Under the pieces are notes generated by a model, which worked only from the letters and a program-made list of their open reading frames with translations, made no database searches and was not told the DNA's origin. The position numbers and the translations under genes were made by a program. Below, one piece after another: positions 1,597 to 29,467 of a DNA stretch of 64,000 nucleotides. How positions within the stretch are numbered: position 1 is the first letter of the stretch; each line of letters starts with the position of its first letter. This stretch comes from Calditrichota bacterium (lineage in GTDB: Bacteria > Calditrichota > Calditrichia > RBG-13-44-9 > J042): assembly GCA_013150955.1 (NCBI GenBank), contig JAADJD010000038.1:92057-156056 (forward strand), read 5' to 3'.

Positions 1597-1768
1597 GCGC
1601 CTATTTTGCGAAAAATCTCTTCCTAAAGCAACTGCATTCGACTTTCTCCCTGGAACGGAATGGGGCCGGATTCCGGGGACAGCCATCCCTCTTCAGGATA
1701 ACAGGAGAAACCGGTCGAGATTGACAGATTACTCATCCACCTTCACAATAAATCCAAATTCTGTTTTA

Positions 1769-1934: not shown

Positions 1935-2000
1935 TTAAGGCTGGCCAGGATTTTTCAACGAGTCGGCGGGAAAAGGTGAATGGGGAGAAAAAACCCTTTA

Positions 2001-2293
2001 TCCCAGATTATGCAATAGCCTACGAATGACACGAATAAATACGAACAAAAATAATAAAATGCATTTGATTCTATCTGGATGAAAATGTTTCCAGGATATA
2101 TTCGCTATTTTGTTGATTTATTTTGAACCCAAATTACGCTTTAGACCACGAATTGCACGAATTAACACAAATAAAAACAATAAAATCCATTGATTTAGAT
2201 CTGGATGAAAATTCGCTTAGAGGTTTATTCGTGATTTTATTGATATTTTTTGTGTTCATTCGCGTGATTCGCGGTTTAACGCATTGTTTGTGT
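2001..2293 (+). mobile_element. MITE-like element: truncated copy (2001-2126) directly followed by a full copy (2127-2293)
   Basis: Two consecutive matches to the element consensus, junction TGA|ACCC. The right flank TTA (2294-2296) is the stop codon of the DUF4175-like gene. Confidence 0.8.
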
Positions 2294-5713: not shown

Positions 5714-5734
5714 AACATCGGTACCTGTCGTAGA

Positions 5735-6397: not shown

Positions 6398-6407
6398 GTT
6401 GGCCTGA

Positions 6408-6926
6408 TCATAAAAACAGTTTGTATCCCACGATCACGATCATGGTCAGGGTGCCGATGGCCTTCACGGTCAGTGGCCCCAACCGGCCGATTAATGCGCC
6501 CAGCATCACCTGCTTTGCTTGGCGCAAATTATTCTTCTTGATTAGCACCTCAAACACGATCGTCCCCACAATCAAACCAATCACCCCCCCGGTGATGGTA
6601 CCCAGCACGGGAGAAGCAAACGCGCCGCTGATGGCACCCAATAGCCCACCGGCAATGGCACCAATGACCAGAATACGATTGGCGCTGTATCCTCTTTTCC
6701 CGAAGGCAATGACGATGTATTCCAGCAATTCGATAAGCAGGGCAATCAAAATGAGGGAGATAATAAAGGAAAATTTATAGCGTTCAAAACGCGTTGCCAG
6801 ACCATACCACAACGCATCGATGACAATAATAAAATTTCCCGGAATGCTTAAAAATATCCCCACCAGACTGAATGCCAGAATTACCAAAAAAATAATTTCC
6901 AGTGTTCCAACCATACCACAACCCAA
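6408..6926 (-). CDS. DUF456-family membrane protein
   Basis: Highly hydrophobic, IPG motif near the N-terminus, glycine-rich GAIAGGLLG/GGVIG helices; the true start may be ATG at 6914. Confidence 0.7.
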   Translation of the reverse strand: MGCGMVGTLEIIFLVILAFSLVGIFLSIPGNFIIVIDALWYGLATRFERYKFSFIISLILIALLIELLEYIVIAFGKRGYSANRILVIGAIAGGLLGAISGAFASPVLGTITGGVIGLIVGTIVFEVLIKKNNLRQAKQVMLGALIGRLGPLTVKAIGTLTMIVIVGYKLFL

Positions 6927-7037: not shown

Positions 7038-7853
7038 TTAAACGCTGGCTTCCTGCACATTTTGCAACGAATACCGGGATCGATGCCGCAGGGCAAAATT
7101 CTGCCGTTTTTGACGGGTATCCAGATTGAGCTTTTTTAGCAGACTCCGCACCTTAAACCAACCGACTTTTTCATTTCCGAATTCCGGCGAGCGCAACCGC
7201 CGATTGATCCGAAACGCCCCGTAATCCGGATAATTGGATACAATATATTTGATTTTTTCTTCCAGGGGTAACCGCTTCAGGCTCACCGGTGCACTGCTGG
7301 TTTTGGGCTGAGTTTCGGAAGTTGTCAGCGGTTGTTCGCTTACGGGCCGGGTTGCCGTTGGTTGATCCACACTGACCGGGCGTTCCGGTTGGTGGGTGGT
7401 TTCACTGGCCTGGGCGACTTCCTCGGCCCTGGCCGCCTGAGCGCGCTCAAAAGCAGCCGCACTGGGCTCGCTGGCCGCCTCGGCCTGCTCAAATTTCATC
7501 ACCGCACCTTCCACCGTATCGTAAACATCCAGAATGTGATGAAATTCCAGCAATTCAAAAATTTCATAAACATCGGGGATCATCCCCACCAATTTTAAAT
7601 CCCCGTTATTTTCCCGAATGGTCTTGATTTCGCTGATAAAAATACCCCACCCCGCACTGCTGATATAGTCCACATTGCTCAGATCAATGATAATATTGTA
7701 TCTCCCCTGCTTTAACAGACTATTCAGGGCACGCTCTACCTCCGAAGATGTCGTGGTGTCGATATATCCGCCCACCTTAATCACCGAAATCTGATTGCGA
7801 CTCCCCGCCGTATGCGTGGAAACTTGGATGCCTTCCATCAAACCCTCCATCAA
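7038..7853 (-). CDS. Anti-sigma-factor antagonist (STAS, RsbV/SpoIIAA type) with Pro/Thr/Ser linker and C-terminal HTH-like domain
   Basis: VIKVGGYID, IIIDLSNVDYISSAGWGIF (phospho-Ser region), GDLKLVGM..VYEIFELL; C-terminal YPDYGAFRINRRL...KVRSLLKKLNL. Confidence 0.9.
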   Translation of the reverse strand: MMEGLMEGIQVSTHTAGSRNQISVIKVGGYIDTTTSSEVERALNSLLKQGRYNIIIDLSNVDYISSAGWGIFISEIKTIRENNGDLKLVGMIPDVYEIFELLEFHHILDVYDTVEGAVMKFEQAEAASEPSAAAFERAQAARAEEVAQASETTHQPERPVSVDQPTATRPVSEQPLTTSETQPKTSSAPVSLKRLPLEEKIKYIVSNYPDYGAFRINRRLRSPEFGNEKVGWFKVRSLLKKLNLDTRQKRQNFALRHRSRYSLQNVQEASV

Positions 7854-7864
7854 TTAATAAAAGG

Positions 7865-10624
7865 TCAGCGATTTTCCTCTTTATCCTGTTGTTCTACATT
7901 ATCATCGGCAACGACATCATTTCCAATAACTTCTTCATCGATTTTGTCCCTTTCGGGCTCATTTCCGTCGGAGTCGGTCACCGGTGTTTCCACCGGTTTT
8001 TCCTCATCCTGCGCATTTTCTTCCGTCAACTGTGCCTTGCGCCTTTCCTCTTCTTCGGAAATTTGCTCCGCAGTGATCAATCGCTTTCCACTCACGGAAA
8101 TAATTTTCTCTTTCGATCGTTTGCCGGCACCTGCACTGGGAATGTAATGATAGGTGGTTTCAAACATATCTTCGCTACGGAACCCAACCATGACCTCGCC
8201 ATCCAGCGTCAACAGCGGGGTACCCGGCGGTTTCAACCGCTGCTTACCGCCCCGCTTCACAAATTGAATCCGCTGCTGCTTGGTGTTCAATTTTGCCCGT
8301 TTTAATTCCTCGTAAATCAATTTCGGCGGTACCTTGGTATAGCCGTATTTCTCTGTATTCAACATGTCACTGATCTTTTTTGGGCCAAATTCAGGATGCT
8401 GCCGGATAATATCATATATTTTGGTCTTTATTTCAATACTTAAATGCTTCAACCCCAGATTAGTATAGCCGTGCAACATTTCCCGCAAATAGGTGTAGCC
8501 GCCCTTCTCGTAAATTTTCTTGTAACGGTAATAGGTCGATGGGGAGATTCCCAGTTCCCGACAGGCTTCCACCAGTGTTTTTCCGTTGGTTCCCTTTTTC
8601 CGCTCAAACAATTCCTTGAACAGATTTACTTTGATATCCACCGCTTCCATATTTTCTTTGATGGCCACCAGGGTGATGTCGTCATTCTGCTCATACCCGC
8701 CGGTAAAATTCAAAATCTCGTTCTTAATGCTTTTCACGAAGTCCACCACATCCAGGTGACCATACTTGCGAATGGCGGCCAGGAACCGTTCTTCCCCGAA
8801 GAGTTCCCGTTTGGCATTCATGGCTTCGGTAATTCCATCGGTGTAGAGCACCAGAATGTCGTCCGGATGCAGCCGAATTCGATCGGCCTGGATTTTTTCG
8901 GCAAACAGATTGATGTCCGGCAGGGTAATTCCCACCGGAAAGCCAGATGGATTCAAATAGTAGGTTTCCTTGGTCTTTCCGCGGAACAGGATCATGGGGT
9001 TATGCCCGGCACTGGCAAAGTAGACCATGCGTTCCCGGGAATCCAGGATGACATAGAACATGGTCACAAACATGCCCTTCTTAATATCCTCAGTCACAAA
9101 GGCGTTAACCCTGGTGAGCACGTCGGCTGGATTTTTATTCCCCCGCGCTTCCAGCCGCAGGGCGGTGCGGATCATGGTCATCACCAGGGAACCGGGAACG
9201 CCTTTTCCGGACACATCAGCCACACAAATGCCGATGCTCTGATCGTCCACCTCCACAAAATCAAACAGATCCCCACCCACTTCTTTGGCGGCCTGATAGT
9301 AGGACGCAATGTCGTATCCGATGACTTCCGGGAAGTCATCCGGCAACAGCATTTGTTGAATTTCCTGGGCCACCTGCAATTCCTTTTGCAGGCGCTGTTG
9401 CTCCACCAGATTGATCTGCGCTTCCCGGAACTTGCTGGTCATCTCATTAAAGGCCTGGGCAATCTCGCCCAGCTCGTCACTGGCGTCAATGTCAATCTCG
9501 TCTTCATCCACCGTACCTTCACCCACCTGACGCACCCACTCGGCCAATTTGTGGAAAGGTTCGGTAATCAGGCTAATGAGCAGGAAGAGGCCAATATAGC
9601 CAGCCACCAGAAAGAGTAAGAGATACAGGATCAGGTTGCGCCGGGCAATGGCAATCTGTTTCAGAATGTATGCCTCTTCCACCCACAGCTGGTAGTACCC
9701 CGCTGGCTCGTCTTCTAGTCCCGCCAGAGCAATGGGGGCCACGAAATAGAAAATGGCCGAATCCCCCACCGCGCGCCGATAGACTTCCACATTCTCCATT
9801 CGGGTGACCAGCTGGGCATGTTTCCAGTCCACTTTCTGGCGGATCATCTCCACCTGAATGGGATACACCGCCACCACCTGCGAATCCCGATCGGTGATTA
9901 CGGCCATGCGGATCATTTCGGGCTTGCTTTCCTTGACCGATTTGGCATTCTGGAACAGAGGAATATCGGTACCCCCTTCCAGCGCCACCGTCAGTGGCTC
10001 GTAGGAGATTTCCGCCAGATTTTGAACCATGGAACTGGCCTGGGAAAAGGTCAATTCGTAAATGTCGGTATTCAAACGGGCGTTAAACACAAAGAAGGCA
10101 ATGATGATGATGATGGTCAAACCCACCGAGCCGACCAGGGAGAATTTGGTGCGCAGGGTAAGCGAATCCCAGATGTCCAGCAACCGGGTTTTTTCCACTT
10201 CATCGCGCACCTTGGTGAGGCGCAATTCGTTGCCCCGGCTGGTTACATTGTAACGGATGTCGTCCATCAACTTGCGCATCATGAAGATGCCCAGACCGCC
10301 CTTTTTCCCGATCTGGACGTATTTCTGGAGATCGGGATTTTTCACCTGCCGGGGGTCAAAACTGATGCCCTGATCGATGATCACCATGGTCAGGCTGCGG
10401 CGGCGGATGATGGCCCGGATGGTGATCTTGCCATCCTTAATATCGCGATAACCGTGGCGGATGATGTTCGTGCAGGCTTCGTCGACAACCAGTTTAAAGG
10501 AATTGATAATCTTATCGGGGAACTTGTACTTTTTGCCAATGAACTCGATAAAATCCCGCACCTCGCGCAGATAACTCATCTGGGCGGGGATCTGAATTTC
10601 TTCTTTAGAAACGTTCTTAAACAT
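7865..10624 (-). CDS. Membrane protein: RsbW-type Ser kinase + TM/periplasmic domain/TM + HAMP + SpoIIE/PP2C phosphatase + HTH modules (919 aa)
   Basis: VDEACTNIIRHGY, IIDQG, GGLGIFMMRKLMD (HATPase); DELGEIAQAFNEM (HAMP); VGGDLFD, VADVSGKG, SAGHNP, YTDGITEA, NDDITLV (PP2C); EACRELGISPSTYYRY (HTH). Confidence 0.92.
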   Translation of the reverse strand: MFKNVSKEEIQIPAQMSYLREVRDFIEFIGKKYKFPDKIINSFKLVVDEACTNIIRHGYRDIKDGKITIRAIIRRRSLTMVIIDQGISFDPRQVKNPDLQKYVQIGKKGGLGIFMMRKLMDDIRYNVTSRGNELRLTKVRDEVEKTRLLDIWDSLTLRTKFSLVGSVGLTIIIIIAFFVFNARLNTDIYELTFSQASSMVQNLAEISYEPLTVALEGGTDIPLFQNAKSVKESKPEMIRMAVITDRDSQVVAVYPIQVEMIRQKVDWKHAQLVTRMENVEVYRRAVGDSAIFYFVAPIALAGLEDEPAGYYQLWVEEAYILKQIAIARRNLILYLLLFLVAGYIGLFLLISLITEPFHKLAEWVRQVGEGTVDEDEIDIDASDELGEIAQAFNEMTSKFREAQINLVEQQRLQKELQVAQEIQQMLLPDDFPEVIGYDIASYYQAAKEVGGDLFDFVEVDDQSIGICVADVSGKGVPGSLVMTMIRTALRLEARGNKNPADVLTRVNAFVTEDIKKGMFVTMFYVILDSRERMVYFASAGHNPMILFRGKTKETYYLNPSGFPVGITLPDINLFAEKIQADRIRLHPDDILVLYTDGITEAMNAKRELFGEERFLAAIRKYGHLDVVDFVKSIKNEILNFTGGYEQNDDITLVAIKENMEAVDIKVNLFKELFERKKGTNGKTLVEACRELGISPSTYYRYKKIYEKGGYTYLREMLHGYTNLGLKHLSIEIKTKIYDIIRQHPEFGPKKISDMLNTEKYGYTKVPPKLIYEELKRAKLNTKQQRIQFVKRGGKQRLKPPGTPLLTLDGEVMVGFRSEDMFETTYHYIPSAGAGKRSKEKIISVSGKRLITAEQISEEEERRKAQLTEENAQDEEKPVETPVTDSDGNEPERDKIDEEVIGNDVVADDNVEQQDKEENR

Positions 10625-10694
10625 TTTCGTCCACTATTTCAAATTCCTGCAAAATACAGCAAAAAAATCAATTTCAAAATACTTTTAACGTAAT

Positions 10695-12599
10695 TTAATT
10701 CTCTTTAGTTCTTTTAAGCAAATCTTCGGCTTTTTTTATGGCTTCCTGAATCTTCTGGTTGTATGGATATTTCCTGGCCAGCTCTCGCCACACCTCCAGT
10801 GCTTCCTGATAGCGTCCGGTCAGGAACAACTCGGTTCCCACAATATACTGCTTCTCGGCCTGCGGATCGAGCTCCTCTTCGCCTTCCCCCAGACCGCGTC
10901 GGGCGCGTTCCATGTACTGACGCAGCACTTCGTTGGCCGGATCCAGATTGAGCGCTTCCTGAAACAGTGCCAGGGCCTCCTGATACCGTCCCTGATCATA
11001 CAACTGCAGCGCCTGTTGCACATACTGTTGCACTTTCACCCGATTGGCCAGCGCATCCACTTCTCGTTTCAACTGAGGATCATCCGGGGACAGCACCAGC
11101 GCCTCGCTCAAGATGCGCAATGCTTCCGAAAGATTGCGATTCTGAAATTCCCGCCGGGCCTGGGTCACCAGACGACGCACTTCCTGGTTCAACCGACGTT
11201 TGGTGGTCTGAATGGCCTGAAGAATAATCGGGTCATCGGGAGACCGTTCCAGTGCCAGATTAAAGGCGATTAACGCTTCGTTAAATCGCTTCTGCTGCAG
11301 GTACAACTGCCCTTTTTCGAACTGCAATTCCACAAAGCGCTTGTTTTCCTTGGCCAGCTCTTTGTCTACCGCCTGGGCGATGAGCTGTTCCTGGCGAGCC
11401 TGCAGCTCGCGCTGGATCAACGTATTGGCGCTATCCAGCATGATCTTGGCCGTCTTGTTAAACGGATCTTCTGAAATGACCATCTGAAATTCGGTAGCGG
11501 CATCAAAGTACTTTTGCTGTTCAAACAATTCCTTTCCTTTGGCCAGATGCTCGGCAATGAAGCGTTGCCGTTCTTCCTCCTTGGTACGCTCCACCAATTC
11601 TTTTTCCCGCCGCCGACGTTCTTCTTCGGCCAGGCGAATCAATTCCTCGCGGGTCTTGCCCAGATTAAACGTGATAGAGAATCGATGGGTGGGCGGCCAA
11701 TCCCCCTGATAACTCAGGTTCCCGAAGGAATAATCGATCTGGACAAAAGAATAGCGCACCCCGGCGCCAAAGGCCAGATTGTTGCGATCGAACCCCACGC
11801 GAATGGTTCCCAGATCGCGGAAATTGTATTCGGTACCCATGTGAACGCGCATGGGCTCAAATTCGGACTTACTGAAATCCAGCAGCACATTCACTCGACC
11901 GCTGAGACCAACCGGGAAGGCCTTCAGGATGCCCAGCCGAAATTGTGCCGGTAGAACTTCCCGCTCCACCCCCAGCTTCAACTCCGGTTTTAGCAGATTC
12001 TGGTAATGAAACCCGATGGACAGATCCCGTAAGAAGCGATTGTCCCATCGCGGCTTGTACATGAGGCCCAGATCCAGACCGATGCCACTGGTGACCAGAT
12101 TCAAAAAGGTAAATTCCTGACGATCGATTTTGAATGTAATTCCTGTGGTAAGGTTAAAGGGCAGTTTCTTGGCGTAAGAAATGTAAAGCTCGCTATATTC
12201 GAAACGGGACACCCCTTCCTGAACGTTGAATTGATTGACCACCGGGATATCCCCCACCCCGATGCGGGCATACCCAACGCCAACCGTTCCGAATTGCAGC
12301 GTGGGATAGACAAATCCCAGGAAGTCGTACACGGCGCCTTCATAAAGGGGCGCATGCAGCAGGGAGATGGTCAGGCGCGGTACAAATTCCAGTCCCGCGG
12401 GATTCCAGAACACCGCGGCCGGGTCATCCGCCAGGGCCACGTACGCCCGACCCAATCCCAGCGCCCGCGCACTGGCACCGATGTTCATTAAACTGGTGGT
12501 GCCGGCACTGCCCTCCTGGGCCTGTATTGGCGGCACGGCTCCTGCAAGAACAACCAGCATGGCCAGTGCAAAAATGAGTGTCTTTGCCCGGTGTTTCAT
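10695..12599 (-). CDS. PorV/PorQ-family outer-membrane barrel with C-terminal coiled coil and TPR repeats (634 aa)
   Basis: Signal peptide, GASARALGLGRAYVALADDPAAVFWNPAGL, amphipathic strands ending HRFSITFNLG, then about 320 aa of TPR-like helices. Confidence 0.85.
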   Translation of the reverse strand: MKHRAKTLIFALAMLVVLAGAVPPIQAQEGSAGTTSLMNIGASARALGLGRAYVALADDPAAVFWNPAGLEFVPRLTISLLHAPLYEGAVYDFLGFVYPTLQFGTVGVGYARIGVGDIPVVNQFNVQEGVSRFEYSELYISYAKKLPFNLTTGITFKIDRQEFTFLNLVTSGIGLDLGLMYKPRWDNRFLRDLSIGFHYQNLLKPELKLGVEREVLPAQFRLGILKAFPVGLSGRVNVLLDFSKSEFEPMRVHMGTEYNFRDLGTIRVGFDRNNLAFGAGVRYSFVQIDYSFGNLSYQGDWPPTHRFSITFNLGKTREELIRLAEEERRRREKELVERTKEEERQRFIAEHLAKGKELFEQQKYFDAATEFQMVISEDPFNKTAKIMLDSANTLIQRELQARQEQLIAQAVDKELAKENKRFVELQFEKGQLYLQQKRFNEALIAFNLALERSPDDPIILQAIQTTKRRLNQEVRRLVTQARREFQNRNLSEALRILSEALVLSPDDPQLKREVDALANRVKVQQYVQQALQLYDQGRYQEALALFQEALNLDPANEVLRQYMERARRGLGEGEEELDPQAEKQYIVGTELFLTGRYQEALEVWRELARKYPYNQKIQEAIKKAEDLLKRTKEN

Positions 12600-12611
12600 A
12601 TGTGTCGATCT

Positions 12612-21600: not shown

Positions 21601-24600
21601 ACTACCTGTACCGAGAGAATGGTAATCGTGGTTTTCTTTAATATCCGAATGGAGTCGATTTGTGTGGTCTGATCCTCATACACGTAACGCTGGTTCGAAT
21701 TGGAATCCGCATAGGTTGTACGTGCCCACAGCTTCTGCATTCCCACAGGAAATGCGTCGTGAAAACGCAGCTGGAACTGAAATGTACCGGATTGTCCCGC
21801 CTGCAACACGACGGGATAGGCAGAAGGTGCGGGGGAAATGGCGGTGGCATACACCGTGTCCACGGATTTGATCACAATATCGTCAGCAGATTGGATGACC
21901 AGCGGCGCTCCCAGGTTGGCATTATTTTGCATCACCAGGGTTAACGGAATGTTTCCCTCTCCCTGACTGGCCTGGGTAGAATCTACCACAAAACTGGTGT
22001 ACACCAGCGACGGTTGATTCTGCACCCGCAGCGAATCAAAATTGGTCAGCGTATCCGTATAGGTTGCCTGGCCTTCCAATCCGTATAAATACAGGGTGGC
22101 CCGGTAGCGACTCACCGCAGCGTTGCTCTTTACGGTGTCCCTTTCAAAATCCAGCATCAGGCTGCTGTTACCGTTCACCACCTGATCCTTATCCAGATAA
22201 AAAGTATCCACTCCAAACACCATGAACGTTCGGGTGGAATCCAGCGTTACTTCGGCCTGTCCGGTATTCTGAATCTTCAGCTGGAAGGCGAAAGGCAGGC
22301 CATTGGTCACCTGCCGGGGAGACAGGCTATTGGCCACGTAGGAAATCGTTGCCGCGGAGATAATTTGAATCACATCCGGGGTATTGGCCGTGGAATCGGC
22401 CACTGCCTGACCATTTTCCACAATCGTTCCGTTAATGACCCCGTCGATGTAAAAACTGCCCAGCGGAAAATTCACCGGAACGGTCAACCGGTACTGGAAA
22501 TTGACCGTCTGATCCGGCCCGATGGAGGTCACCGCACTCAGGGTTTGAGAAGGCAGCAGATAGGTCTGTCCGCCATCGCGCAAATAAACGTAAGTATTGG
22601 CGGTGTCCACATTAATGGTCACATTACCGGCGTTCCGCACCGTCATGGTCACATCAAAGGTGTTGCCGCGCTCGATCCGATCCGGTGCGGTGGCCGTGCT
22701 TAAAATGTCGATGGTAAAAATGCGCAACTCCTGCGTATCGGTGTATAATGAGCCACGAAAGTCCGCATCCACACCCCGGCCTTTTAAGGCAATCTCTGGC
22801 GTGTATCGCCCGGTGGTTAATTGATTGGAAATGGTCACCGGATCGAAAGACAACGTCCAGCCGGTGGCGTTGGCCGGAATGCTGTCTGTTTGATTGAGAT
22901 ACGTGGTGATGGTGATCGAACCGTCGGTAAAGGTCAGATAACTATTATTGGTATCCAGCCGCACGGGATAAGGGCCGGGATTGGTGACCTGAATCTGAAA
23001 CGTCTCCGTGGTACCCAGACGCGCAATATCGGGCGTTAAGGAGCCGGCCGTATACTGCAATCGGTAAAAATGGATGGGCAGGGTGTCCACCCCGGCAATG
23101 TAGGCATTCACGATCGTCAGCGTGGCGGCATCGTCAATCTTCACCGAATTTTTTACCACACCGTTGGTATCCGCCGTGGCGGACGATTCGGTCAGCAGGG
23201 CATTGGCACCGGAAGCAATGGAAAATTGAATGGTGGTATTTCCTACAATATTTCCATACTGATCCCGCACCCGTACGGAAAATGGGGTCGCATAGGTGGG
23301 CAGGGTGGTGACCGAATCGCTGGCGATGTTGCGGATGCTTACCAGCTGCAGCTGTCGGGGCGCATCGGAGATGGCCGTGGCGGTCAGGGTGTCGGAAATA
23401 ATCGTACCGGCGCTGTTCCGTGCACGCAAATAATAGGTACCGCGGGTTGTACCCAGCGTCCAGGTGGTGGAGGCAAAACCGTTGGCATCGGTCACCGCGG
23501 AGGTGGGAGACACGCTGCCACCGTTCAACGGTTCAAACACAATGGTTTCGCCGGAAATGGGATTCTCATACGCGTCCACCAGCTTGACCTTGACCGGGGT
23601 GGGTAGCGCCTGCCCCACCGTGTCCGTCTGGCCATCTCCATTAATCACCAGGATGGCATTGGCCGCCGCCGGCTGATTGGCCACACCGGTAAAATCCAGT
23701 CGCGCCGGCGTGGTGGACGCAAAAGCAGACACCCGATACGTCCCCAGCTTACTCCCCAGTGTAAGAGACGTTTCCGCATAACCATTGGCATCGGTAAACG
23801 CCGAATCCGCCGAAAGGGATTGATTCACGGCCCCATCCGGCTCACTGGTAATGGCAAAGCTAACCTTGGTGCCACTGACCGGGTTGTTTAAACTGTCCAG
23901 GATCTGTACCCGGAAGGGCCCCACCACACCATTCACCGCTCCCGTATCCGATGTGGCCGAGGCATAAATCATGGTATCGGCCTTGGTGCTGGTGGGAAAT
24001 CCGTAAAAAGTGACCGTGTCCGGATTGGTGGTATAAGTTGCCAGATAAGCCTTCACCGAGTCCGGATCGGTGGTGGGATGCAGCGTCCAGGTGGTGGACG
24101 CATAGCCCTGTGAATTGGTGGTCGAAACAGTTGGATTCACCGAGCCTCCGCCCACGGGATTCCAGGTGACCTGCACATTGGGCACCGGGTTGCTGTAAGC
24201 ATCCAGCACCCGCACTTTCAAATCGCGCGGCACCACCGTTCCCGGCGATGCCGTCTGACTGTCTGTGGAGGCCACCTTGGTCAGGGTGGCAGGATTGGCC
24301 GGTTTTACGGTAATGGTGGAAGTCTGATCCAGTAATCCCCCACTGGCCGTCACCGCCTTAATGACCGTATTGCCTGACTTGCGCGCTTCGAACACGTTCG
24401 TGGCGGTGGGATTCGGAGTCTGGAACACTCCAATGGTATCGGGAATATGCGACCAGTTGGACGACTGATCGGCAATGAAATTGTCCTTGGCATCGTACCC
24501 GCTGGCGTAAAGGTTCAGGGTGGTGCCCGCGGTCATGGTCAGGGTGTCGATTTCCGAGCCCGCACTGCCCGAGACATCCTGAATCACGATATAATCCAGC

Positions 24601-27600
24601 GTCCCCACATCGAGGGTGATGTTATTGGTCGAGTCGTTGGTAACCGTGGTGGACGTGGTGTAAATAAAGAAGTTATCGGGAGCCACCTGCGGATCGAACT
24701 GTATGTAGCTGCGGCTGCCAGACGGCACTGTGTTCAGCGTGCTGGAGATGGCCCAGGTAACGGGTAAATCGCCCACAAAGTTGCCGCGGGAATCGTAATG
24801 GGCGGCATACAGGTACAGGGTGGTGTCCGTGGTAATCGTTACATTGAGTTGATCGTAGCGCTGCCCGCCACCATTCGCCTGCGTGCGAATCACAATGTAG
24901 CTGGCGCTTCCCGCCTGGACGGTAATAATGCCAGATTCATCACTGATGCTGGAATTCGCCACGCTGACGGCCTGGATGGTACCATTGCCAGCACTGTCGG
25001 CCGTCATGGTGCCCGAGGTACCGGTGAATGTGGCCTGTCCATTCCCCCACTTTCCAATCGAAGAGGGGTTAATCGTCCAATCGCTATTGATGAGCCCCAG
25101 ATAATTCAAGTCGCTATCGTAGCCCACGGCATAAACGGTAAGGGTGGAACCGGCAGCGATGGTCGAATCGCCCAGCTGCTTTCCGCCACTGTCGGGAACC
25201 GTTTGAATGTACAGGTAAGCCAGGGCACCATCGTTCACGGTGACCACTCCGGTGGAATCGCCCGCAATGGCGGCATTCCCGGCAATTTCCACATGAATTT
25301 TTCCGGTCACCCCGCTGGTGGTGGGCTCAAAGGTCATTTTGCGAGCGGTGACGTTCACCACCGGTTTCAATCCGCCACTGGAAAACCAGTGGGCCGAATC
25401 GATATCGGCAATATAGTTTCCATATCGATCGTATCCGGCGGCGTAATAGGTCAGGCTTTCGTCCGCGGTGATGATCGTGTCCAGCAACGAAACCGCCCGT
25501 CCGCCGTTGTTGGCATCGGTGCGAATCTTGAGCTCCGCCAGCGCGGCGGGATTGATCGTAAAGGTATTCGATGTTGCTGACTTCCCGGTGGCATCGCTAA
25601 CGGTAAAGGTCACTCCACTTTCCTTCACCGTATCGATGGCAGTAAACGTGGCCGTTCCGTTCACCAGATTCTGTGGATTGGCCGAGGTAAACACCACACC
25701 GGTACCGTTCGAAGAAAGTGTCACCTGCCGACTGGAGGTGGTGACTACATTCCCGTAAACATCATAAGCGGTCACATTCAGGGTGATGGTCTCTCCGGCG
25801 TTGTACGTGTACACCCCTCCACTCGGTTCGATGGTGTAGTAAGAAACATCCGCCGGTTGCAGGGTCAACACCACGTAAATGCTATCCGCCGTACCGTAAT
25901 ACACCAGAATGGAATCGGTGGTTAACGCGGTGCTTTCGGAAGCGATGTATGACGTCTCCGCAATGCCGTTCTGATCGGTCAACACATCGATAGTGTCCAC
26001 ACCGGTGTTGACAAACGTCCCGGTTCCCCGAATGCGCCGAAACTTCACCGTGGAGTCGCTCAGGGTGTTCTGGTACTGATCCTTCAGCCGCACACGGATC
26101 AATACCTCGCTCCCCACGGTGGTATTGCCCGATCCCTGCAGTTCCTCCAGCAAAAATGCATTTGCGGGATTGACCGTGATGGCACCGCTCTGACCATTGA
26201 CATTCGGATCCGTGGATTTTTCCGCCTTCACGTAATAGGTTTCGGCCACTGTATCGGTTACCGAGATGGTTACCACCGTATCGGCGGCAAAGGTAACACT
26301 GGTACCCGGAGAAAACGTCACCCCGGTACCATTGATGGTGCTTAAATTGATCTGATCGGAGTTGGAAACGGGGTTATCGTAAATATCTCTGGCAATGATT
26401 TTGAAATTCAACGCCACTCCGGCACGGGTGGTCTGGGCGGTGGAGGGCACAAATTCGTAATAGCTCACCGCATCGGGTTGAAGGGGGAGGACAATCGTAT
26501 CCCGCACGGTGGTTTGCCAGGACACCTGAATTTGATCATTCACGAATTGGGTGCTGGTACTGGCGGTGTAGTTGGCCTCGGCAATACCGCTGGAATTGGT
26601 TTTGACGTGGGCACTGTCCAGACCGTTATCAAACGTACCGCTGCCATTAATGCGTTGAAACACCACCAGGCTATCTTTAATGCGATTGCCATAAACGTCC
26701 TCCAGGGCCACCTGCAGGAGCCGGGATTCCCCCACTGTAATGGCACTCTGGCTGGAAAGAATCAAAAACCGATTGGGTGCCGCGGGATTCACCGTAATTT
26801 GCCCGCTTTCCCCATTAATATTGGCATCGGTGCTTTTTTCGGCACGCACGGTGAACGATTCCGCCACCGTATCCGTCACACTAAAATTCACCGAGGAACC
26901 CCCACCAAAAGATAGCGTGGTTCCCGGAGAAAAGGTCACTCCCGTTCCCCCGATGGCCGAAAGGATCACCTGATCGGAATTATTGACCGCATTGCCGTAC
27001 ACATCCCGCGCCGTGATGGTAAAATTCAGGGTCGTTCCTGCCGTGGTGGTTTGATTGGTGGACGGGGAAAACGAATAATAACTCACCGCATCGGGTTGCA
27101 GCGGCAGGATGATGGTGTCGATCACCGTTCCCCGCCAGGACACCCGGATGCTATCGTTGACGTGCTGGGTGGTGGTGCTGGCCGTGTAGGTCACCTCCGC
27201 CACACCGGAGGCGTTGGTCTTCACATGCGCACTATCCAGCCCATTGGAAAAAGTCCCATTCCCGGTCAGCCGCTGAAATACCAGCAGACTGTCCTTATGC
27301 CGGTTGCCGTAGGCATCTTCCAGCGCCACCTGGAGCAGTCGGCTGGTTCCCACGGTAATAGCCGACTGACTGGAAAGAATCACCATCTGGCTGGGGGTAT
27401 TGGGATTTACCGTCACCAGGCCACTTTCCCCATCGATGTTGGGATCGGTGGACTTTTCTGCCCGGATGGTAAAATCTCCCACCACGGTATCGGAAACCGA
27501 AAAGTGAACCGTATCCTGCCCGTTAAAAGGAATGGGATTGGCCCGATTAAACGTGGCCGTACTGCTGCCCACTGCGGTCAGGTTTACACTATCGTTATTG

Positions 27601-28874
27601 GGCACGGGATTGCCAAAAGGATCAACGGCGGTCAAGACGTACTGCAAATTTTGACCGGCACGTACCGTTTGATCGGCCGCCGGCGTGAACTCGTAGCGGG
27701 CCACCTGAGTGGTCTGCACCGTGAAACTGGACGCCGCGGTGGCCGCACGTGCCTTTTCCAGGTCGGCGTAAACGTGAGTATTGAAGGTGTACGTGCCCGT
27801 GGACGTGGGGGCATCTTCAACAAACACTACCTTTATGGAATCTCGAATGGCGAACGGGGGCAGCAAAATGTACAGGCTATCCACCGTGTTGTTGTAATAC
27901 CAGGTGGCAAATCCCAGATCGGTGGGTGGGGTGGTGGATTTTTTCAGGTAATAGCTCTGCCCGTCCACCACAATTTCGGTCACGTAAATGGGATCGGTAA
28001 CCGTGGTGTTAATGGGATTGCTGATGCGCACCACATCGGCCTTGCCCATTAAATTCAATCGGGAGGCCGTGGAGGTCAGCCCGGTTAAATTCAGGGTAAA
28101 TGTTTGATTGTTAATGGCGGGTTCGGTGGTCGCCGGGGATAAACTGGAGTTCACACTTAGATTCCCAGCTGGATAAAAAATAATGGCCAGACTGTCCGAC
28201 AGCACCGGCTGGTTGTAAGAATAGACCAGATTGTCGAAGAATGAGGTGCCGGTAAACTTCAACCCGATGGTGGCACTGGCACCTTTTTCCTCGGGTGTCA
28301 GACCATCCCCGATGCGTAAATATTGAAACTTGATGATGTTGGTGGTCTCGTACAGAATCACTTCAAATTCGAATGGCCCATCGGCCAGATTCGCCCGACG
28401 TACCACATCCCGAAACTCGATGATCACCTGTCGGTAAGGCGCCTCCCCCTGCACATCCACAAATACCCCACCGGTACTGGTGTTTAAGAATTGCAGATCG
28501 TCCCAGAACACCGCCAGAATCGAATCCGGCGACGTCCCCTGGGCCAGATTATCGTTGGTTGGAAAACTATTGGTGCCATAATTGTGAAAGGTAATGTATC
28601 CGTTAGAACTGATGTAAATCTGGGTAAATGGTCGGGAATAAAAATAAAACGCAAACGGCAGGGTGTAGGTGTAAACTGTATCGTTATCTGGCGGTGTGGC
28701 CAGGTTGGTGGCATCGGAAGTTAAGCGAATCCAGTCGAAGGTCACATGTTGCGAATCGGCCCAGGCAAATCCTTCGGCAGAAGGGCCTCCCTTATCGGCC
28801 CAGACACGCGCAGCAGATCCCAACAGCAAAAGCACGATCAAACTGGAAAAGAGCGGTAGCTTAAATTTCATCAT
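12612..28874 (-). CDS. Giant secreted Ig-like repeat protein (5420 aa) with FlgD-Ig/T9SS-type C-terminal sorting domain
   Basis: Signal peptide; invasin/Big_1-like repeats (D.YGN, TDANG.A.T.WTLG); many V.N.G CARDB-like units; C-terminus NYPNPF...RIYTLLGELV...WDGRN...NGVYL...TKVAFIK. Confidence 0.9.
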   Translation of the reverse strand: MMKFKLPLFSSLIVLLLLGSAARVWADKGGPSAEGFAWADSQHVTFDWIRLTSDATNLATPPDNDTVYTYTLPFAFYFYSRPFTQIYISSNGYITFHNYGTNSFPTNDNLAQGTSPDSILAVFWDDLQFLNTSTGGVFVDVQGEAPYRQVIIEFRDVVRRANLADGPFEFEVILYETTNIIKFQYLRIGDGLTPEEKGASATIGLKFTGTSFFDNLVYSYNQPVLSDSLAIIFYPAGNLSVNSSLSPATTEPAINNQTFTLNLTGLTSTASRLNLMGKADVVRISNPINTTVTDPIYVTEIVVDGQSYYLKKSTTPPTDLGFATWYYNNTVDSLYILLPPFAIRDSIKVVFVEDAPTSTGTYTFNTHVYADLEKARAATAASSFTVQTTQVARYEFTPAADQTVRAGQNLQYVLTAVDPFGNPVPNNDSVNLTAVGSSTATFNRANPIPFNGQDTVHFSVSDTVVGDFTIRAEKSTDPNIDGESGLVTVNPNTPSQMVILSSQSAITVGTSRLLQVALEDAYGNRHKDSLLVFQRLTGNGTFSNGLDSAHVKTNASGVAEVTYTASTTTQHVNDSIRVSWRGTVIDTIILPLQPDAVSYYSFSPSTNQTTTAGTTLNFTITARDVYGNAVNNSDQVILSAIGGTGVTFSPGTTLSFGGGSSVNFSVTDTVAESFTVRAEKSTDANINGESGQITVNPAAPNRFLILSSQSAITVGESRLLQVALEDVYGNRIKDSLVVFQRINGSGTFDNGLDSAHVKTNSSGIAEANYTASTSTQFVNDQIQVSWQTTVRDTIVLPLQPDAVSYYEFVPSTAQTTRAGVALNFKIIARDIYDNPVSNSDQINLSTINGTGVTFSPGTSVTFAADTVVTISVTDTVAETYYVKAEKSTDPNVNGQSGAITVNPANAFLLEELQGSGNTTVGSEVLIRVRLKDQYQNTLSDSTVKFRRIRGTGTFVNTGVDTIDVLTDQNGIAETSYIASESTALTTDSILVYYGTADSIYVVLTLQPADVSYYTIEPSGGVYTYNAGETITLNVTAYDVYGNVVTTSSRQVTLSSNGTGVVFTSANPQNLVNGTATFTAIDTVKESGVTFTVSDATGKSATSNTFTINPAALAELKIRTDANNGGRAVSLLDTIITADESLTYYAAGYDRYGNYIADIDSAHWFSSGGLKPVVNVTARKMTFEPTTSGVTGKIHVEIAGNAAIAGDSTGVVTVNDGALAYLYIQTVPDSGGKQLGDSTIAAGSTLTVYAVGYDSDLNYLGLINSDWTINPSSIGKWGNGQATFTGTSGTMTADSAGNGTIQAVSVANSSISDESGIITVQAGSASYIVIRTQANGGGQRYDQLNVTITTDTTLYLYAAHYDSRGNFVGDLPVTWAISSTLNTVPSGSRSYIQFDPQVAPDNFFIYTTSTTVTNDSTNNITLDVGTLDYIVIQDVSGSAGSEIDTLTMTAGTTLNLYASGYDAKDNFIADQSSNWSHIPDTIGVFQTPNPTATNVFEARKSGNTVIKAVTASGGLLDQTSTITVKPANPATLTKVASTDSQTASPGTVVPRDLKVRVLDAYSNPVPNVQVTWNPVGGGSVNPTVSTTNSQGYASTTWTLHPTTDPDSVKAYLATYTTNPDTVTFYGFPTSTKADTMIYASATSDTGAVNGVVGPFRVQILDSLNNPVSGTKVSFAITSEPDGAVNQSLSADSAFTDANGYAETSLTLGSKLGTYRVSAFASTTPARLDFTGVANQPAAANAILVINGDGQTDTVGQALPTPVKVKLVDAYENPISGETIVFEPLNGGSVSPTSAVTDANGFASTTWTLGTTRGTYYLRARNSAGTIISDTLTATAISDAPRQLQLVSIRNIASDSVTTLPTYATPFSVRVRDQYGNIVGNTTIQFSIASGANALLTESSATADTNGVVKNSVKIDDAATLTIVNAYIAGVDTLPIHFYRLQYTAGSLTPDIARLGTTETFQIQVTNPGPYPVRLDTNNSYLTFTDGSITITTYLNQTDSIPANATGWTLSFDPVTISNQLTTGRYTPEIALKGRGVDADFRGSLYTDTQELRIFTIDILSTATAPDRIERGNTFDVTMTVRNAGNVTINVDTANTYVYLRDGGQTYLLPSQTLSAVTSIGPDQTVNFQYRLTVPVNFPLGSFYIDGVINGTIVENGQAVADSTANTPDVIQIISAATISYVANSLSPRQVTNGLPFAFQLKIQNTGQAEVTLDSTRTFMVFGVDTFYLDKDQVVNGNSSLMLDFERDTVKSNAAVSRYRATLYLYGLEGQATYTDTLTNFDSLRVQNQPSLVYTSFVVDSTQASQGEGNIPLTLVMQNNANLGAPLVIQSADDIVIKSVDTVYATAISPAPSAYPVVLQAGQSGTFQFQLRFHDAFPVGMQKLWARTTYADSNSNQRYVYEDQTTQIDSIRILKKTTITILSVQVVGSDTVSQGQTGVTFNMVLQNSGEVNGHVGVDSAYLSFNNQHSLESITPPLPVTILAGSTDTLQFKYTINSKSALGPDPVNGTVIYSNVRTGAITTEKRNNADTIYVESAADTNLITINSLDVSQFNVNQGQSGISAKVKLTNLAEADARIDSLRIFANQPGVKDSLVSALGILPGKSSRTYNFLLSISTTADTGIIPLDVRAVFTDLNSNQQYREVGASRTDSVNVLTPANLIVNAVQVSRDTVSQGQQDVEVTTFVKNTGMADLRLDAFTPSISPDAAGFTMERVSPVDLPTIAGGDSVKFIYRMTVKLTAQTVTDTIDFEARGTDLVDNRSLGPVTSTAPATVLVQSAGSVQIDSVTTPVTAVSVGQKGIPVRVYFQNPGQALVDVTEVTLYFNGATTGFYQNLDSLSSDPFSGNNIAYFSLEVLSSASEGNYTITSTVEGIETNKQETVKDSSTAAEGPTLTVTRPAELRILAVDASSPTFAFDSVSIGSNDVPVHVRVKNTGNTPLLLDTLQVTFSTGSFAGQDTVFAPALEIAAGATRQIDFAIDVLSSNSPRSVTLNARGAGRDSHSNMRLTDSGADTTDSWRMVVPGKLIYTSISPNEVSNGQVVGFRVEVENEGQANMKLFAASTYLDFAGTRYYLKNDTWVEGNRIKYLYFENKTIQLPTGSIDGQLYANNYFENGFYKSTVLSPITITVYDSAKVVIHTITAPDTVSQEQVFSIQVAVRNDGASRANAIIDSLLIPELGIREYVGQQATPNTVLMLPTANASLDTTVQGNYPYTVRVIWRDVNINRQNRTDSLTQVFVLKKATIDFVQAVAPDTVTTGQTVDSVKITLRNRGEVAALLDQIQFTPNMGVYTITAQHNVQQIPPGQTVNLFYQFRVEDNSATGRDSIALTVRGRDELSQNAITTQVSPAFDWLIQENPDLAITSVVASQSTVSRGQTGVRVKVNLVNNGGGDVVLDTVRLNFSSGNANYSNIVRSNLNKTIAGGDTAVVLLYVDVSTTATLGADVIDAAASGRNAVSGSRVQAPAAQTTASWTVQQRPVLAYTSFAVDQDTASTGQTNVLLAFTIKNQGQGNPTATARIDSIEILANNVAFDTSNFNIVRLFSLPVTLPNGASSSLNYRIEVKPTAASNRYTFTARVHYRDENDQQALLFEDASTSDDLQVVQQARLVVESIAIAPDTAHVGQEDVQYVVRIRNTGEAGAEIFSNTLQFYVSYPFTQTLQNPLLPVTVAGGNTVDLTYSVDVPNSISLDTYQDTLIYAGTRLTAQDVYSEASLNTTADSLAYLTVVNPADFEFLELGPYTVFDDGDTVQFTVTVVNAGGSIVHLNNQTHLEIPSEPAMITYIDPLATDMTVAPAETTVLVFQPLVLSQTGEYVPVTRIRGTSNEIPYAENLNTVVINIGGNVSITDVQVNPDQVVPGQKNVDVFVRVTNAGPPLKIDEQGTMLDFRYVDNGEILFAPNRRVDNLDTLHTTPPGSFETLQWLFDVPDDARVGRVTVKAIISFNNGTLTKVSLLPDTFLIKSGVLLSYQNGSLEPDSIVPGETVTFSVIVENSGNTDLIVNPDSSYLEFTDGVRVFRANVDGNITIRGTLTQTPRENTVPFVTETVPPDFAPNLILPIQVVMHGKLPNDQPFEGDTLVGQHQLTVLPEALVVVDSIDIVPQVVTRGQSFVEVRYYLSNKGASGAQVNELNSVFVDSAGQEMTDQWITVFNSHNLPFTILPGEQVTFIRKYNILDTAPLGPAFAGLNGAYNDLRKPDDERNFTSGAVTDQVRIIQFSSAFVSQLKLAQVPNPPFVNYGQPVALELYLANSGDDTLSQVHVTIFKDAEIFIRDTIPVLLPNRITKFTYTFRADSVSQTQLFRATIDSAFSRITGNQVFVGQPVDNTENLFIQQPVVLTLSATASDSTLSQVQEFTVDYRISTTGESEWSTGQVELVLPPNYQLTPETPDAVQTISPTNRSGFWKVKAMDLTQGLNDTLLVHLRQLPLDVNTNQPAGVAIDTVKIPVRTDTSARIVSTVEIIDPVGAVDRELTTGQQFLLKNTIFFLGQVARSDRVAEVIVPTGYSVEGRTRVDVEPQGVVQEVVWRINTPATPSGPDTLRIINRGKDENTFEEITDVQTLVVNVVDGARIRLQAAIAAPEGAVDGELSTDQLFQLKIQTLNVGQAGILDTSRNRIRIQLPAGIQFADRSGDTLSIQLGIQDTTLTLRTLNNPLPLQNIVVQLQEVARDENTLEPAAIVNNLVRIPIRVVRKALLQLSVSGDTVMSTGQTGLLTVELRNLGDARVVPDSVRVQIVQMGQGLTLLGTPATQYIAIDPETRSGAAHLAVSATANVGADTLIVAITDSLARDENNNFENARVARVSDTVRFAYVIEQRGLIVTQLSIDWPEGARDSTISTGQTFRLKGEVEFRGSVAPENRLVALVFDPATGFRILGDSVQVVSDRGDQVTVTWDVLAPDFVPGSGAVPGVPAAMVAQSPRKKFVNEGPEPRQKPTKPGKTGKSSTAGKLPPRKFGKRTGDDALRILGFEKMKPVMAEARSKVFKVMDVLKTTQGTPFFLQAYAVEKNTGEALSQTSNMLPIEVQRRAVLRLEGVQRAYRLSQKQRFDVSVRVVNTGEAPVSGSGSVRIELNGILLAPGETSEKSFSLGANKDTRITWKLMAPDSNINTLMNITFGQLPQDANTNAPVDVHPDSNRVVIDVNMIPKRLIVEKLEDIIPESNYVQGQKDVAVLGFSMSNPQIDDTLYVKKVLISLRNPAEGNRPYADLVNMISRIKVVSLKYYRELLKKKAAGQIPDIFADVPVTDTTANPASVPFNVNQDVLLPGEKHELVVLFDIAQNAPNRNFHVGLDGVVAFQKFAGDFYSVEVTDSIGNPIDTLNNKLQSQSISVVPSDPKKSFGNYPNPFGLRDEYTKFVFYLESPADVELRIYTLLGELVWKKEEKGLQKGLYDGKIVWDGRNERGYRVLNGVYLAVLRVKYQNGETKMFKTKVAFIK
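25850..27710 (-). repeat. Three tandem ~206-aa (~618-bp) repeats within the giant protein
   Basis: Recurring AEKSTDxNxxGxSGxxTVNP, SSQSAITVGxSRLLQVALEDxYGNR, LDSAHVKTN and LQPDAVSYY units about 618 bp apart. Confidence 0.85.
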
Positions 28875-28885
28875 CCGTTTCCGGG

Positions 28886-29362
28886 CTATTTTTTCAATGT
28901 AATTTTGGATGTTACATCGACCAAACCCGATGGATTAAAAACGGAAGTACTTCCGGCCCAGACCCGCAATTGTTGCACGGGGGTGCGCCGATCCACCGGA
29001 AGTAAGCGAATTTGCATTCGATTGAAATCCGCCCGTCGATCGGGATGGAAGATAATCGTCAACATGCGACGGGTGGAATCGTAGTTCCAGTGCACCACGT
29101 CCGGATGCGCCGGCGGCTGATCCGATTGTTTCAGCCAGAGCGATTGGCCATCCACCCACACCTCGCCCACCGCCAGCGCCGCCTCGCTGGTATCCTGCAC
29201 AAATAGCACGACGGCCGCTTGCGGCAAATCCGCGGCAGCCAGCTCCACATCCAGATGACGGGTAACCGCCTCCTGCGCCAGCGCCATTGTCCCCAGCGAA
29301 AGCATCCCCAGGATCCAGCTCACTTTCAGGAACAGCGATTTTATCATCATGATCTTTACCAA
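28886..29362 (-). CDS. Small exported protein paralogous to a domain of the adjacent giant protein
   Basis: Signal peptide ending ALA|QE; ends 11 bp upstream of the giant gene; shares a VDGQS..LK.S..PP......W.Y motif with it. Confidence 0.75.
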   Translation of the reverse strand: MVKIMMIKSLFLKVSWILGMLSLGTMALAQEAVTRHLDVELAAADLPQAAVVLFVQDTSEAALAVGEVWVDGQSLWLKQSDQPPAHPDVVHWNYDSTRRMLTIIFHPDRRADFNRMQIRLLPVDRRTPVQQLRVWAGSTSVFNPSGLVDVTSKITLKK

Positions 29363-29467
29363 CCGATTTTTTCGCCTATTGTTGAGATTTTCAAAATATC
29401 CGCACTTTTACCCGATAAGGGTGATAACAATCACAAGGATTTTAATAGATTTACGGTTTTTCTCCCG

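Follow-up and report, generated by a model that had tools for sequence, protein, structure and literature searches.

In Vibrio fischeri, the syp biofilm locus encodes a kinase/PP2C protein, SypE, and its STAS partner SypA, whose mechanism is reported to be still unknown (PMC4517449; see also PMC3610818 and PMC10120452). A second STAS protein, CapS, contains a C-terminal winged helix-turn-helix (HTH) domain and acts as a repressor, which comes off the DNA once the RsbW-like kinase CapK phosphorylates the serine of its STAS domain (Chambers et al., EMBO J 2026, PMC13373217). For the T9SS (type IX secretion system), SprB and SprF of Flavobacterium johnsoniae and type-B cargo proteins with cognate PorP/SprF shuttles have been described (PMC12618676, PMC9143113, PMC12635249). 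In Porphyromonas gingivalis, the C-terminal domain (CTD) of PorA was shown to bind PorY in the periplasm, which turns on T9SS genes (PMC12152298). The present work concerns a gene cluster of a Calditrichota bacterium (GenBank assembly GCA_013150955.1, contig JAADJD010000038.1), in which the genes for a giant exported protein and a PorV/PorQ-family barrel lie next to those for a membrane-bound kinase/phosphatase and a STAS protein. The whole stretch analysed, called the window, comprises 64,000 nucleotides (positions 92,057 to 156,056 of the contig), and all coordinates of the cluster are counted from its first letter.

Five genes of the cluster had been noted in a reading of the sequence alone, as a co-directional group with gaps of 11, 12, 70 and 11 bp in the order small exported protein, giant protein, barrel, sensor and STAS protein. 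This arrangement was confirmed by the listing of open reading frames (ORFs) in the window, which places all five on the minus strand with unchanged coordinates, and by the domain matches. The cluster consists, however, of six genes, since it is headed by a gene for a cytoplasmic tetratricopeptide repeat (TPR) protein outside the span first noted. With a probability of roughly 45%, we consider the six genes to be one conserved functional unit, in which a T9SS-type cargo and its cognate barrel are coupled to a SypE-like membrane-bound STAS kinase/phosphatase. The genes are, in 5' to 3' order on the coding strand:

29468-30658, minus strand: head gene, outside the first-noted span; cytoplasmic TPR protein of 396 aa
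28886-29362, minus strand: gene for the small exported protein of 158 aa, with a signal-peptide-like N-terminus
12612-28874, minus strand: gene for the giant protein of 5420 aa
10695-12599, minus strand: gene for the PorV/PorQ-family barrel with TPRs, 634 aa
10625-10694, minus strand: intergenic gap of 70 bp between the barrel and sensor genes
7865-10624, minus strand: gene for the sensor kinase/phosphatase (K919) of 919 aa
7038-7853, minus strand: gene for the STAS protein of 271 aa

The evidence for such a unit comes mainly from the conservation of the linkage. An orthologue of K919 is present in single copy in 80 of 86 Calditrichota genomes, and in 52 of the 53 high-quality ones, while the barrel-TPR protein was found in 78 of the 86. 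In 71 of the 80 genomes with the sensor, the barrel gene lies directly upstream of the sensor gene, on the same strand and contig (coordinates compared by eye; N-terminal fragments were used for genomes G017 and G036). For the other nine, seven sensor matches abut a contig end and one is located at a scaffold gap of 100 N, which makes eight of the exceptions breaks in the assembly; the ninth is that of genome G062. An apparent loss of the giant and barrel genes in a closed genome (G011, locus L042) was rejected, because a scaffold gap of 100 N is present at that place. The sequence-only reading had joined the giant/PorV pair and the signalling pair in one system, to be given up if the two were unlinked in other genomes. 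The co-directional adjacency of the two pairs, found in 71 of the 80 genomes, clearly speaks against such unlinking, and support for the linkage is strong.

Among 55 K919 loci, the barrel gene was identified upstream in 38 and a STAS homologue downstream in 42. Where the downstream STAS gene was missing, five loci are cut by contig ends, three are without STAS, and five are remote matches. Generally, for loci without a flanking partner the flank itself is mostly absent; the others are remote matches, the lone paralogues L061, L063 and L064, or L067. The junction between the barrel and sensor genes comprises 3-12 nt in five of nine measured loci and 44-301 nt in the other four. The full order of head TPR gene, small ORF, giant gene, barrel-TPR gene (632-648 aa) and sensor gene was found in all six Calditrichia genomes compared, and a homologue of the head TPR gene also precedes the small or giant gene in 15 of 17 further stretches.

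The four-gene core was also identified in 10 of 10 distant loci with 46-56% identity, one of them in a named Zhuqueibacterota metagenome-assembled genome, and the giant/barrel pair is adjacent to the signalling pair in all 10 distant loci with upstream sequence. Homologues of the head TPR protein are encoded in the KSB1-labelled genome G089 (E=3e-42) and in G090 (E=5e-40). G090 has the six-gene form, and in G089 the genes for the head TPR protein, giant, barrel-TPR protein and sensor are located on one contig, without the small ORF and with a lone paralogue of 1990 aa elsewhere. The gene order is thus kept across the phylum Calditrichota and in two or more other lineages of phylum rank; conservation over a phylum puts the arrangement of the cluster far beyond chance.

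The sensor had been read as an RsbW-type kinase followed by a transmembrane (TM) span, a periplasmic domain, a second TM span, HAMP, PP2C and HTH domains. This order was borne out by Pfam matches and by the two hydrophobic spans:

10211-10591, minus strand: RsbW-type serine kinase domain (aa 12-138; HATPase_c_2, 100.3 bits)
9641-10078, minus strand: periplasmic sensor domain (aa 183-328) between the two TM (hydrophobic) spans, with a PDC/sCache-like fold
8657-9583, minus strand: HAMP domain (aa 348-398), linker and PP2C/SpoIIE phosphatase domain (PP2C aa 460-656)
8180-8587, minus strand: transposase-type bipartite HTH (aa 680-790; HTH_28, HTH_23) and an invariant motif (aa 791-815)

In the Protein Data Bank (PDB), the kinase domain matched RsbW (6m36_A) with 60.9 bits, and the N-box and G-box residues E49, N53, D84, G86 and G106-G112 are invariant in 27 of 27 sequences. 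The PP2C domain matched SpoIIE with 173.7 bits; D452, D455, D470, D596, D648 and D649 are invariant in all 27 sequences, and the metal-binding aspartates are intact. In a Foldseek search with the model of the sensor, Rv1364c was the best match, and the PP2C domain of SiaA (TMt 0.82) and RssB were also matched. No receiver domain was found in the sensor, the centre of which is TM-sCache-TM-HAMP between kinase and PP2C. In the AlphaFold2 (AF2) model, the periplasmic domain is folded into a long helix, two further helices and a six-stranded sheet, with block means of the predicted local distance difference test (pLDDT) of about 74-91, and the nearest atlas cluster carries sCache_3_2 (score 0.96). 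Within Calditrichia (17 sequences), the cytoplasmic domains of the sensor are 77-88% identical to those of the window, compared to 29% for the periplasmic domain and 53% for the TPR tail of the barrel protein. For a distant group of eight sequences, the corresponding values are 56-69%, 9% and 25%.

The first HTH of the sensor (aa 680-713) passes three Pfam HTH cut-offs, but barely so (27.5 against a cut-off of 25 for HTH_28, and 27.1 against 24.6 for HTH_23). The region of aa 679-790 matches the N-terminal DNA-binding part of IS481/IS3 transposase models (35 bits for IS481). It is followed by the motif of aa 791-815 (8180-8254, minus strand) with the consensus RGGKRRLKPPGTPLLTLDGEV.VGFRS, of which P800, G801, T802, P803, T806 and G809 are shared by all 27 sequences without exception; in the AF2 model, this stretch is disordered. 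Distant sensor homologues (L061, L063 and L064, and L051:9977-13873) are 1250-1990 aa long and contain cytoplasmic TPRs at their C-terminal end, and one of the three lone KSB1-labelled paralogues is then followed by a free RsbW-like protein of 158 aa. The idea that these C-terminal TPRs are a fused form of one of the cluster's TPR proteins was tried and not counted, since their similarity to the head TPR protein is weak (best E=8e-8, 25% identity), and that to the barrel tail is about equally weak (E=1.7e-4).

In the STAS protein, the STAS domain (aa 19-117, 72.8 bits with the Pfam model) is joined by a variable linker to a conserved C-terminal domain:

7656-7658, minus strand: codon of the candidate phospho-serine S66, from the alignment with TM1442 and RsbV
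7086-7286, minus strand: conserved C-terminal domain (aa 190-256)

The motif around S66, DYISSAGWG, is present in 28 of 28 orthologues and aligns with MDSAGLG of TM1442 and MDSTGLG of RsbV. The best PDB matches of the kinase domain and the STAS protein include RsbW and RsbV from the solved complex 6m36. Judged from these motifs, the sensor has an intact kinase and an intact PP2C phosphatase, and its putative substrate keeps the phospho-serine. This C-terminal domain has a homologue in the sensor, namely its second HTH sub-domain (32% identity, E=1e-6, with reciprocal tblastn matches). The homologous part of the STAS protein is the region listed above. The designation as a STAS-HTH protein thus holds for the STAS domain and for this homology, but not at the level of the Pfam HTH cut-offs. 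The true start of the gene is probably the ATG at 7838, five codons further in, from which a protein of 266 aa with the conserved N-terminus MEGIQVS would be translated.

A PorV-like barrel with a TPR tail of about 320 aa had been proposed for the 634-aa protein, and the family model, structure prediction and structural matches agree with this assignment:

11661-12491, minus strand: PorV/PorQ-family outer-membrane beta-barrel (aa 37-313; NF033709)
10698-11654, minus strand: tail at the C-terminus of the barrel protein (aa 316-634), with one helix of 44 residues and then TPR-like helical repeats

The protein matched the PorV/PorQ family model NF033709 with 126.7 bits (cut-off 90) over aa 37-313, and TPRs follow up to aa 630. 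It is far under the equivalog cut-offs, with 55.2 against 250 for PorV (NF033710), 65.2 against 220 for PorQ (NF033711) and 88.8 against 325 for PorV2, and a better PorV candidate with 309 bits to the family model is encoded elsewhere in the genome. The AF2 model (pLDDT 85.8) consists of strands between residues 76 and 313, one helix of 44 residues, and helical repeats to the end. In Foldseek, the top matches were the PorV chains 8gl6_F (E 2.9e-12) and 6h3i_F of SprA translocon structures, with FadL/TodX next. We infer a periplasmic location for the tail, which contains no cysteines. Among the 13 PorV-family genes over the cut-off in the genome, the one in the cluster is alone in having a frame of about 638 aa. 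At L044:8142-9982 and G039:C14:14877-16758, the barrel-TPR gene was read in several frames or as two ORFs, one for the barrel and one for the tail, owing either to a true split of the gene or to sequencing errors.

Besides its signal peptide, the giant protein carries four Big_1 domains and many CARDB-like repeats, and it ends in an Ig-like domain of the sorting type; a NIDO-like domain near the N-terminus is sub-threshold:

12612-12950, minus strand: C-terminal Ig-like domain of the giant protein, about the last 110 aa

The N-terminus, read by eye as a Sec signal peptide, consists of the hydrophobic stretch MMKFKLPLFSSLIVLLLLGSAARVWA followed by a conserved DKGG. The orthologues comprise 4441-5606 aa in the six Calditrichia genomes and 2186-4219 aa in the distant lineages. 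The C-terminal domain passes the cut-off of FlgD_ig alone (30.7 against 27). It matches the C-terminal end of the PorU model locally with 45.7 bits, which is among the best of about 50 proteins in the genome with CTD-like tails of this kind, and also the C-terminal end of the PorZ model. The giant had been called CTD-bearing; its tail did not reach the T9SS-specific cut-offs.

For the small exported protein, no Pfam or NCBIfam family was matched. An ORF of 150-240 aa with a hydrophobic N-terminus is present at its position in all six Calditrichia genomes. In the window, aa 55-107 of the small protein (gene at 28886-29362) resemble aa 288-340 of the giant (27855-28013), with 36% identity and E=7e-8. 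The small protein was not retained as a paralogue of a giant domain, since this similarity is clear in the source genome, weak in one other and absent in the remaining five of six. The head protein has TPRs as its sole Pfam match and is without a signal peptide, TM or other hydrophobic span; for its N-terminal part of about 110 residues, no Pfam family was matched and an atlas look-up gave nothing (0.76).

The source genome, which is 99.7% complete, encodes a PorU sortase (849.8 bits against a cut-off of 420) and an SprA translocon (787.7 bits summed). No match to the GldK, GldL or GldM models was obtained in it; control genomes also gave none over the cut-off, and none whatever for GldL and GldM, so that the absence of these genes is not proven by this search. 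The genome may hold a translocon without the known motor and ring, or these genes may be too divergent for the models. Two more PorV-family genes (G000:C29:159767-160737 and G000:C5:15405-17104) are located directly 3' of a gene ending in a PorU-like C-terminal domain; therefore, pairs of a cargo with its own barrel recur in this genome.

From the linkage and the domain content, we infer the following mechanism. The SprA-type translocon would export the giant and pass it on to the giant's own barrel, which would hold it at the cell surface in the way known for SprB with SprF and for other cargo with its cognate PorP-like shuttle. That the giant would dock on a dedicated barrel is reasonable by analogy with the cognate PorP/SprF shuttles (PMC12618676). 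The helical/TPR tail of 320 residues would reach into the periplasm. The sensor would work like SypE, with the receiver replaced by the transmembrane sCache-HAMP input, and a periplasmic signal would shift the balance of kinase and PP2C and set the phosphorylation of S66 on the STAS protein. The preferred source of this signal is the system itself, with the TPR arm of the barrel reporting whether the cargo is in place, though this step is doubtful. The STAS protein could act like CapS, its phosphorylation state controlling both self-association and DNA binding via the transposase-derived C-terminal domain, and the homologous domain on the sensor could make a further contact with DNA or else dock the substrate. 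A likely target would be the promoter region of the cluster itself, for which no sigma factor would be needed. In its complete form, this would be a trans-envelope relay: a surface fibre of several thousand residues on a PorV-like barrel, a TPR arm spanning the periplasm and touching the sCache sensor, and the presence, load or loss of the fibre passed via STAS phosphorylation to the DNA by a domesticated transposase HTH, without a sigma factor and with SprA but no recognisable PorKLMN. The relay as a whole has to be regarded as unlikely.

The contact between the tail and the sensor was addressed by complex prediction, in which the TPR tail (aa 316-634) and the periplasmic domain (aa 183-328) were each given a 27-row alignment. 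The score was 0.60 (runs 0.60, 0.60 and 0.00), the best of three controls gave 0.00, and the result was rated as weak support. Solved complexes reached the mark for this score in 58 of 80 cases, mismatched pairs in 2 of 110; 7 of the 80 solved complexes and both passing mismatches lie at 0.60 or under. In the tail/sensor runs, the contact agreement was at least 0% and the partner pLDDT at least 80. The proposed contact of the TPR tail with the inner-membrane sensor thus gained a weak pass, but it is opposed by a periplasmic domain that evolves much faster than the tail.

Several further observations weigh against the unit or the relay proposed for it. No part of the sensor is less conserved than the periplasmic domain (29% and 9%), which is not what a fixed interface predicts, and its modelled fold appears sCache-like, a class that usually binds small molecules. 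In a distance-matrix (mirror-tree) test of the sensor domain against the barrel, the coil and the TPRs with the cytoplasmic part controlled, partial r was 0.26-0.54; because the cytoplasmic kinase as a control gave the same (0.27-0.54), there is no specific signal. The giant tail is under the T9SS-specific cut-offs (TIGR04183 19.6 against 23, PF18962 14.9 against 27, CHU_C 24.9 against 27), and with nothing matched by the GldK, GldL and GldM models, the export route is, as far as these models go, not a canonical T9SS. The C-terminal domain of the STAS protein reaches no Pfam HTH cut-off (14.3 against 28.1 for HTH_21). The HTH modules are conserved across phyla, but the sole conserved palindrome found upstream, described below, is confined to one order. 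Finally, three unrelated genes separate the sensor and STAS genes in locus L050, and in KSB1-type genomes there are also lone K919 paralogues with neither a barrel nor a STAS gene beside them (L061, L063 and L064).

Among the alternatives, an ordinary local regulator survives best. Here, the sCache domain would sense an external or metabolic small molecule, and the switch would do no more than control the surface-protein operon beside it. The TPR tail would be a periplasmic chaperone or hand-off platform for the giant, or an envelope tether, and would not touch the sensor. The sCache-like fold, the fast evolution of the sensor domain, which is usual for ligand-binding domains, and the lack of specific co-variation in the distance-matrix test all point in this direction. 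Regulators beside their target operons are also common, as with SypE/SypA in the syp biofilm locus (PMC4517449). A tail without a role in signalling fits less well with the fact that only the cluster-linked barrel among the 13 PorV-family genes over the cut-off has such a TPR tail, that 3-12 nt lie between the barrel and sensor genes at five of the nine measured junctions, and that the tail/sensor complex passed weakly (0.60, 0.60, 0.00) while all controls stayed at 0.00. On this evidence, a local regulator is possible, though not probable.

A separate question is whether the switch acts on DNA at all. The unphosphorylated STAS protein might instead bind a protein, for example the cytoplasmic TPR protein or the export machinery, with the transposase-derived modules serving for docking only. 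Action of this kind has been proposed for SypA, the mechanism of which is still unknown (PMC4517449). Enzyme and substrate share the same domain, which is sub-threshold for HTH models in the STAS protein; the cluster begins with a conserved cytoplasmic TPR protein, and TPRs, likewise cytoplasmic, are present at the C-terminus of distant sensors. On the other side, the first HTH of the sensor passes three Pfam HTH cut-offs, and CapS shows that a fusion of STAS and a DNA-binding domain works as a repressor (PMC13373217). We regard a pure protein target as unlikely. By analogy with CapS, output probably runs through the STAS-HTH protein without a sigma factor.

A candidate operator lies in front of the five-gene unit:

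29421-29434, no strand assigned: palindrome TGTGAT-TGTT-ATCACC with the core GTGA-N6-TCAC (TGTGATTGTTATCACC on the coding strand), candidate operator

The palindrome is located 59 nt upstream of the small ORF and is the sole such site in the window. Its half-sites resemble the CRP/FNR consensus. The GTGA-N6-TCAC core is present at the same intergenic place in 10 of 10 genomes of the order to which the window belongs; among 14 genomes from other orders none contains it, though for four of these the stretch covered the interval incompletely. Exact TGTGA-N6-TCACC sites occur six times in the genome, compared to four for the reversed control. As judged from the sequence, the palindrome likely marks an operator or promoter that separates the five-gene unit from the head TPR gene. 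With so narrow a range, it is less likely to be the universal target of the conserved HTH modules.

Promoter and terminator scans gave counts at the level of shuffled sequence or within about 1.5 standard deviations, with no site in the gaps; promoters of the type of the Fibrobacterota, Chlorobiota and Bacteroidota (FCB) group were not covered by these scans. The 70-bp gap between the barrel and sensor genes thus contains no terminator-like or promoter-like site in a scan that was at chance level overall. As to a sigma-54 promoter, neither TGGCAC-N5-TTGC (with up to one mismatch) nor GG-N10-GC was found in the intergenic regions of the cluster. That the window contains no sigma factor gene, as first noted, agrees with the genome, where none of the 12 sigma-70-family genes lies on the contig of the window (sigma-54 was not searched as a gene) and no sigma-B/F/G-type gene was found over the cut-off. 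A sigma factor to be bound by the kinase was thus not found in the neighbourhood; a distant one may be the partner.

A secretion checkpoint of the PorA-PorY type would also link cargo to the sensor. In this case, the sensor would bind the CTD of the giant or the small protein in the periplasm and report a backlog of cargo instead of the state of the barrel. Binding of the PorA CTD to PorY in P. gingivalis is a precedent (PMC12152298), and fast evolution is common to the sensor domain, the giant and the small protein. However, the sensor is no histidine kinase, and no similarity to PorY or PorA was obtained in any search, which makes a checkpoint of this type quite improbable. That two independent modules are adjacent by descent only, without a shared function, as the lone K919 paralogues (L061, L063, L064) and the three genes inserted in L050 could suggest, is very hard to reconcile with same-strand adjacency that holds in 71 of the 80 genomes and also in other lineages at phylum level, with differing genes downstream.

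These downstream genes, which lie 3' of the STAS gene at 1-6926 of the window on the minus strand, code for DUF456, DUF4159, DUF4175 and patatin-POTRA proteins. They are syntenic in Calditrichia loci and absent from the distant loci, and because they are kept only within Calditrichia they were treated as a separate unit. Elsewhere in the window, the G+C content falls to 0.40 at 48001-52000, compared to about 0.50-0.55 around it.

The cluster is near-universal and single-copy in Calditrichota and recurs in sister FCB lineages; therefore, it is probably central to building or controlling the surface of these abundant sediment bacteria. It joins three topics which have been studied apart, namely cognate T9SS shuttle barrels, partner switching without sigma factors, and DNA-binding modules of transposases reused as regulators. 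If the barrel tail indeed talks to the sensor, this would be a new route for information from the cell surface to the cytoplasm. The cluster also raises the question of how an SprA-type translocon works where no PorKLMN-like genes were detected. Orthologues of the barrel protein are listed under the cultured Caldithrix abyssi DSM 13497, so that these questions can be tested at the bench.

In the literature on type IX secretion or PorV in Calditrichota and Caldithrix, and on partner switching together with type IX secretion, no description of this cluster was found. The sequence-only reading knew of no described system that combines T9SS-type surface display with partner switching. This has to be softened: the combination was not found in print, but each half and each idea of a coupling has a published relative, in PorA-PorY, SprF-GldK, SypE/SypA and CapK/CapS.

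A close relative of the signalling half is SypE/SypA. SypE is a cytoplasmic protein with a central receiver domain between kinase and PP2C. In both systems, an RsbW-type kinase and a PP2C phosphatase on one chain act, or here are predicted to act, on a STAS protein of small size, none of the sigma factors is known to be targeted, and the pair is tied to a surface or biofilm locus. The differences are the TM-sCache-TM-HAMP centre, which replaces the receiver, the added transposase-type HTH, and the extra C-terminal domain of the STAS partner. Rv1364c of Mycobacterium tuberculosis (3ke6) also combines PP2C and an RsbW-like kinase on one chain. However, Rv1364c is soluble and has neither a membrane sensor nor an HTH. 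Its domain order is reversed, with a STAS domain fused in.

For the surface half, SprB/SprF shows the same succession of a giant adhesin gene and the gene for its own outer-membrane barrel, the functional periplasmic C-tail of which connects it with an internal structure. Here, the barrel belongs to the PorV/PorQ family, the tail is a TPR arm of 320 residues, and GldK was not found in the genome. The disulfide mechanism of SprF-GldK is not applicable, because the tail is without cysteines. PorV and PorQ of the T9SS attachment complex (6h3i, 8gl6) share the family model and the barrel fold with the protein of the cluster, but the known proteins are without a TPR tail, and the cluster barrel is far under their equivalog cut-offs.

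A coupling of both halves has a counterpart in PorA-PorXY-SigP, where genes related to secretion are controlled by a sensor in the inner membrane, to which a component of the T9SS cargo signals across the periplasm. There, a histidine kinase, a response regulator and an extracytoplasmic function (ECF) sigma factor are used, in contrast to the STAS kinase/phosphatase without a neighbouring sigma factor in the cluster. For the output, CapK/CapS is a close system. Its STAS domain is fused to a C-terminal DNA-binding domain, its kinase is HTH-bearing, and an adjacent operon is regulated without a sigma factor. The winged HTH of CapS is MarR/ArsR-like, whereas the domain found here is transposase-derived and sub-threshold, and no CapS chain was among the PDB matches of the STAS protein at E<=0.001. 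CapK is described as soluble, sensing single-stranded DNA and without a phosphatase, and the pair controls immune operons instead of surface proteins. With the precedent of CapK/CapS, output through the fused HTH modules of the Calditrichota cluster is therefore plausible, and at the same time less new.

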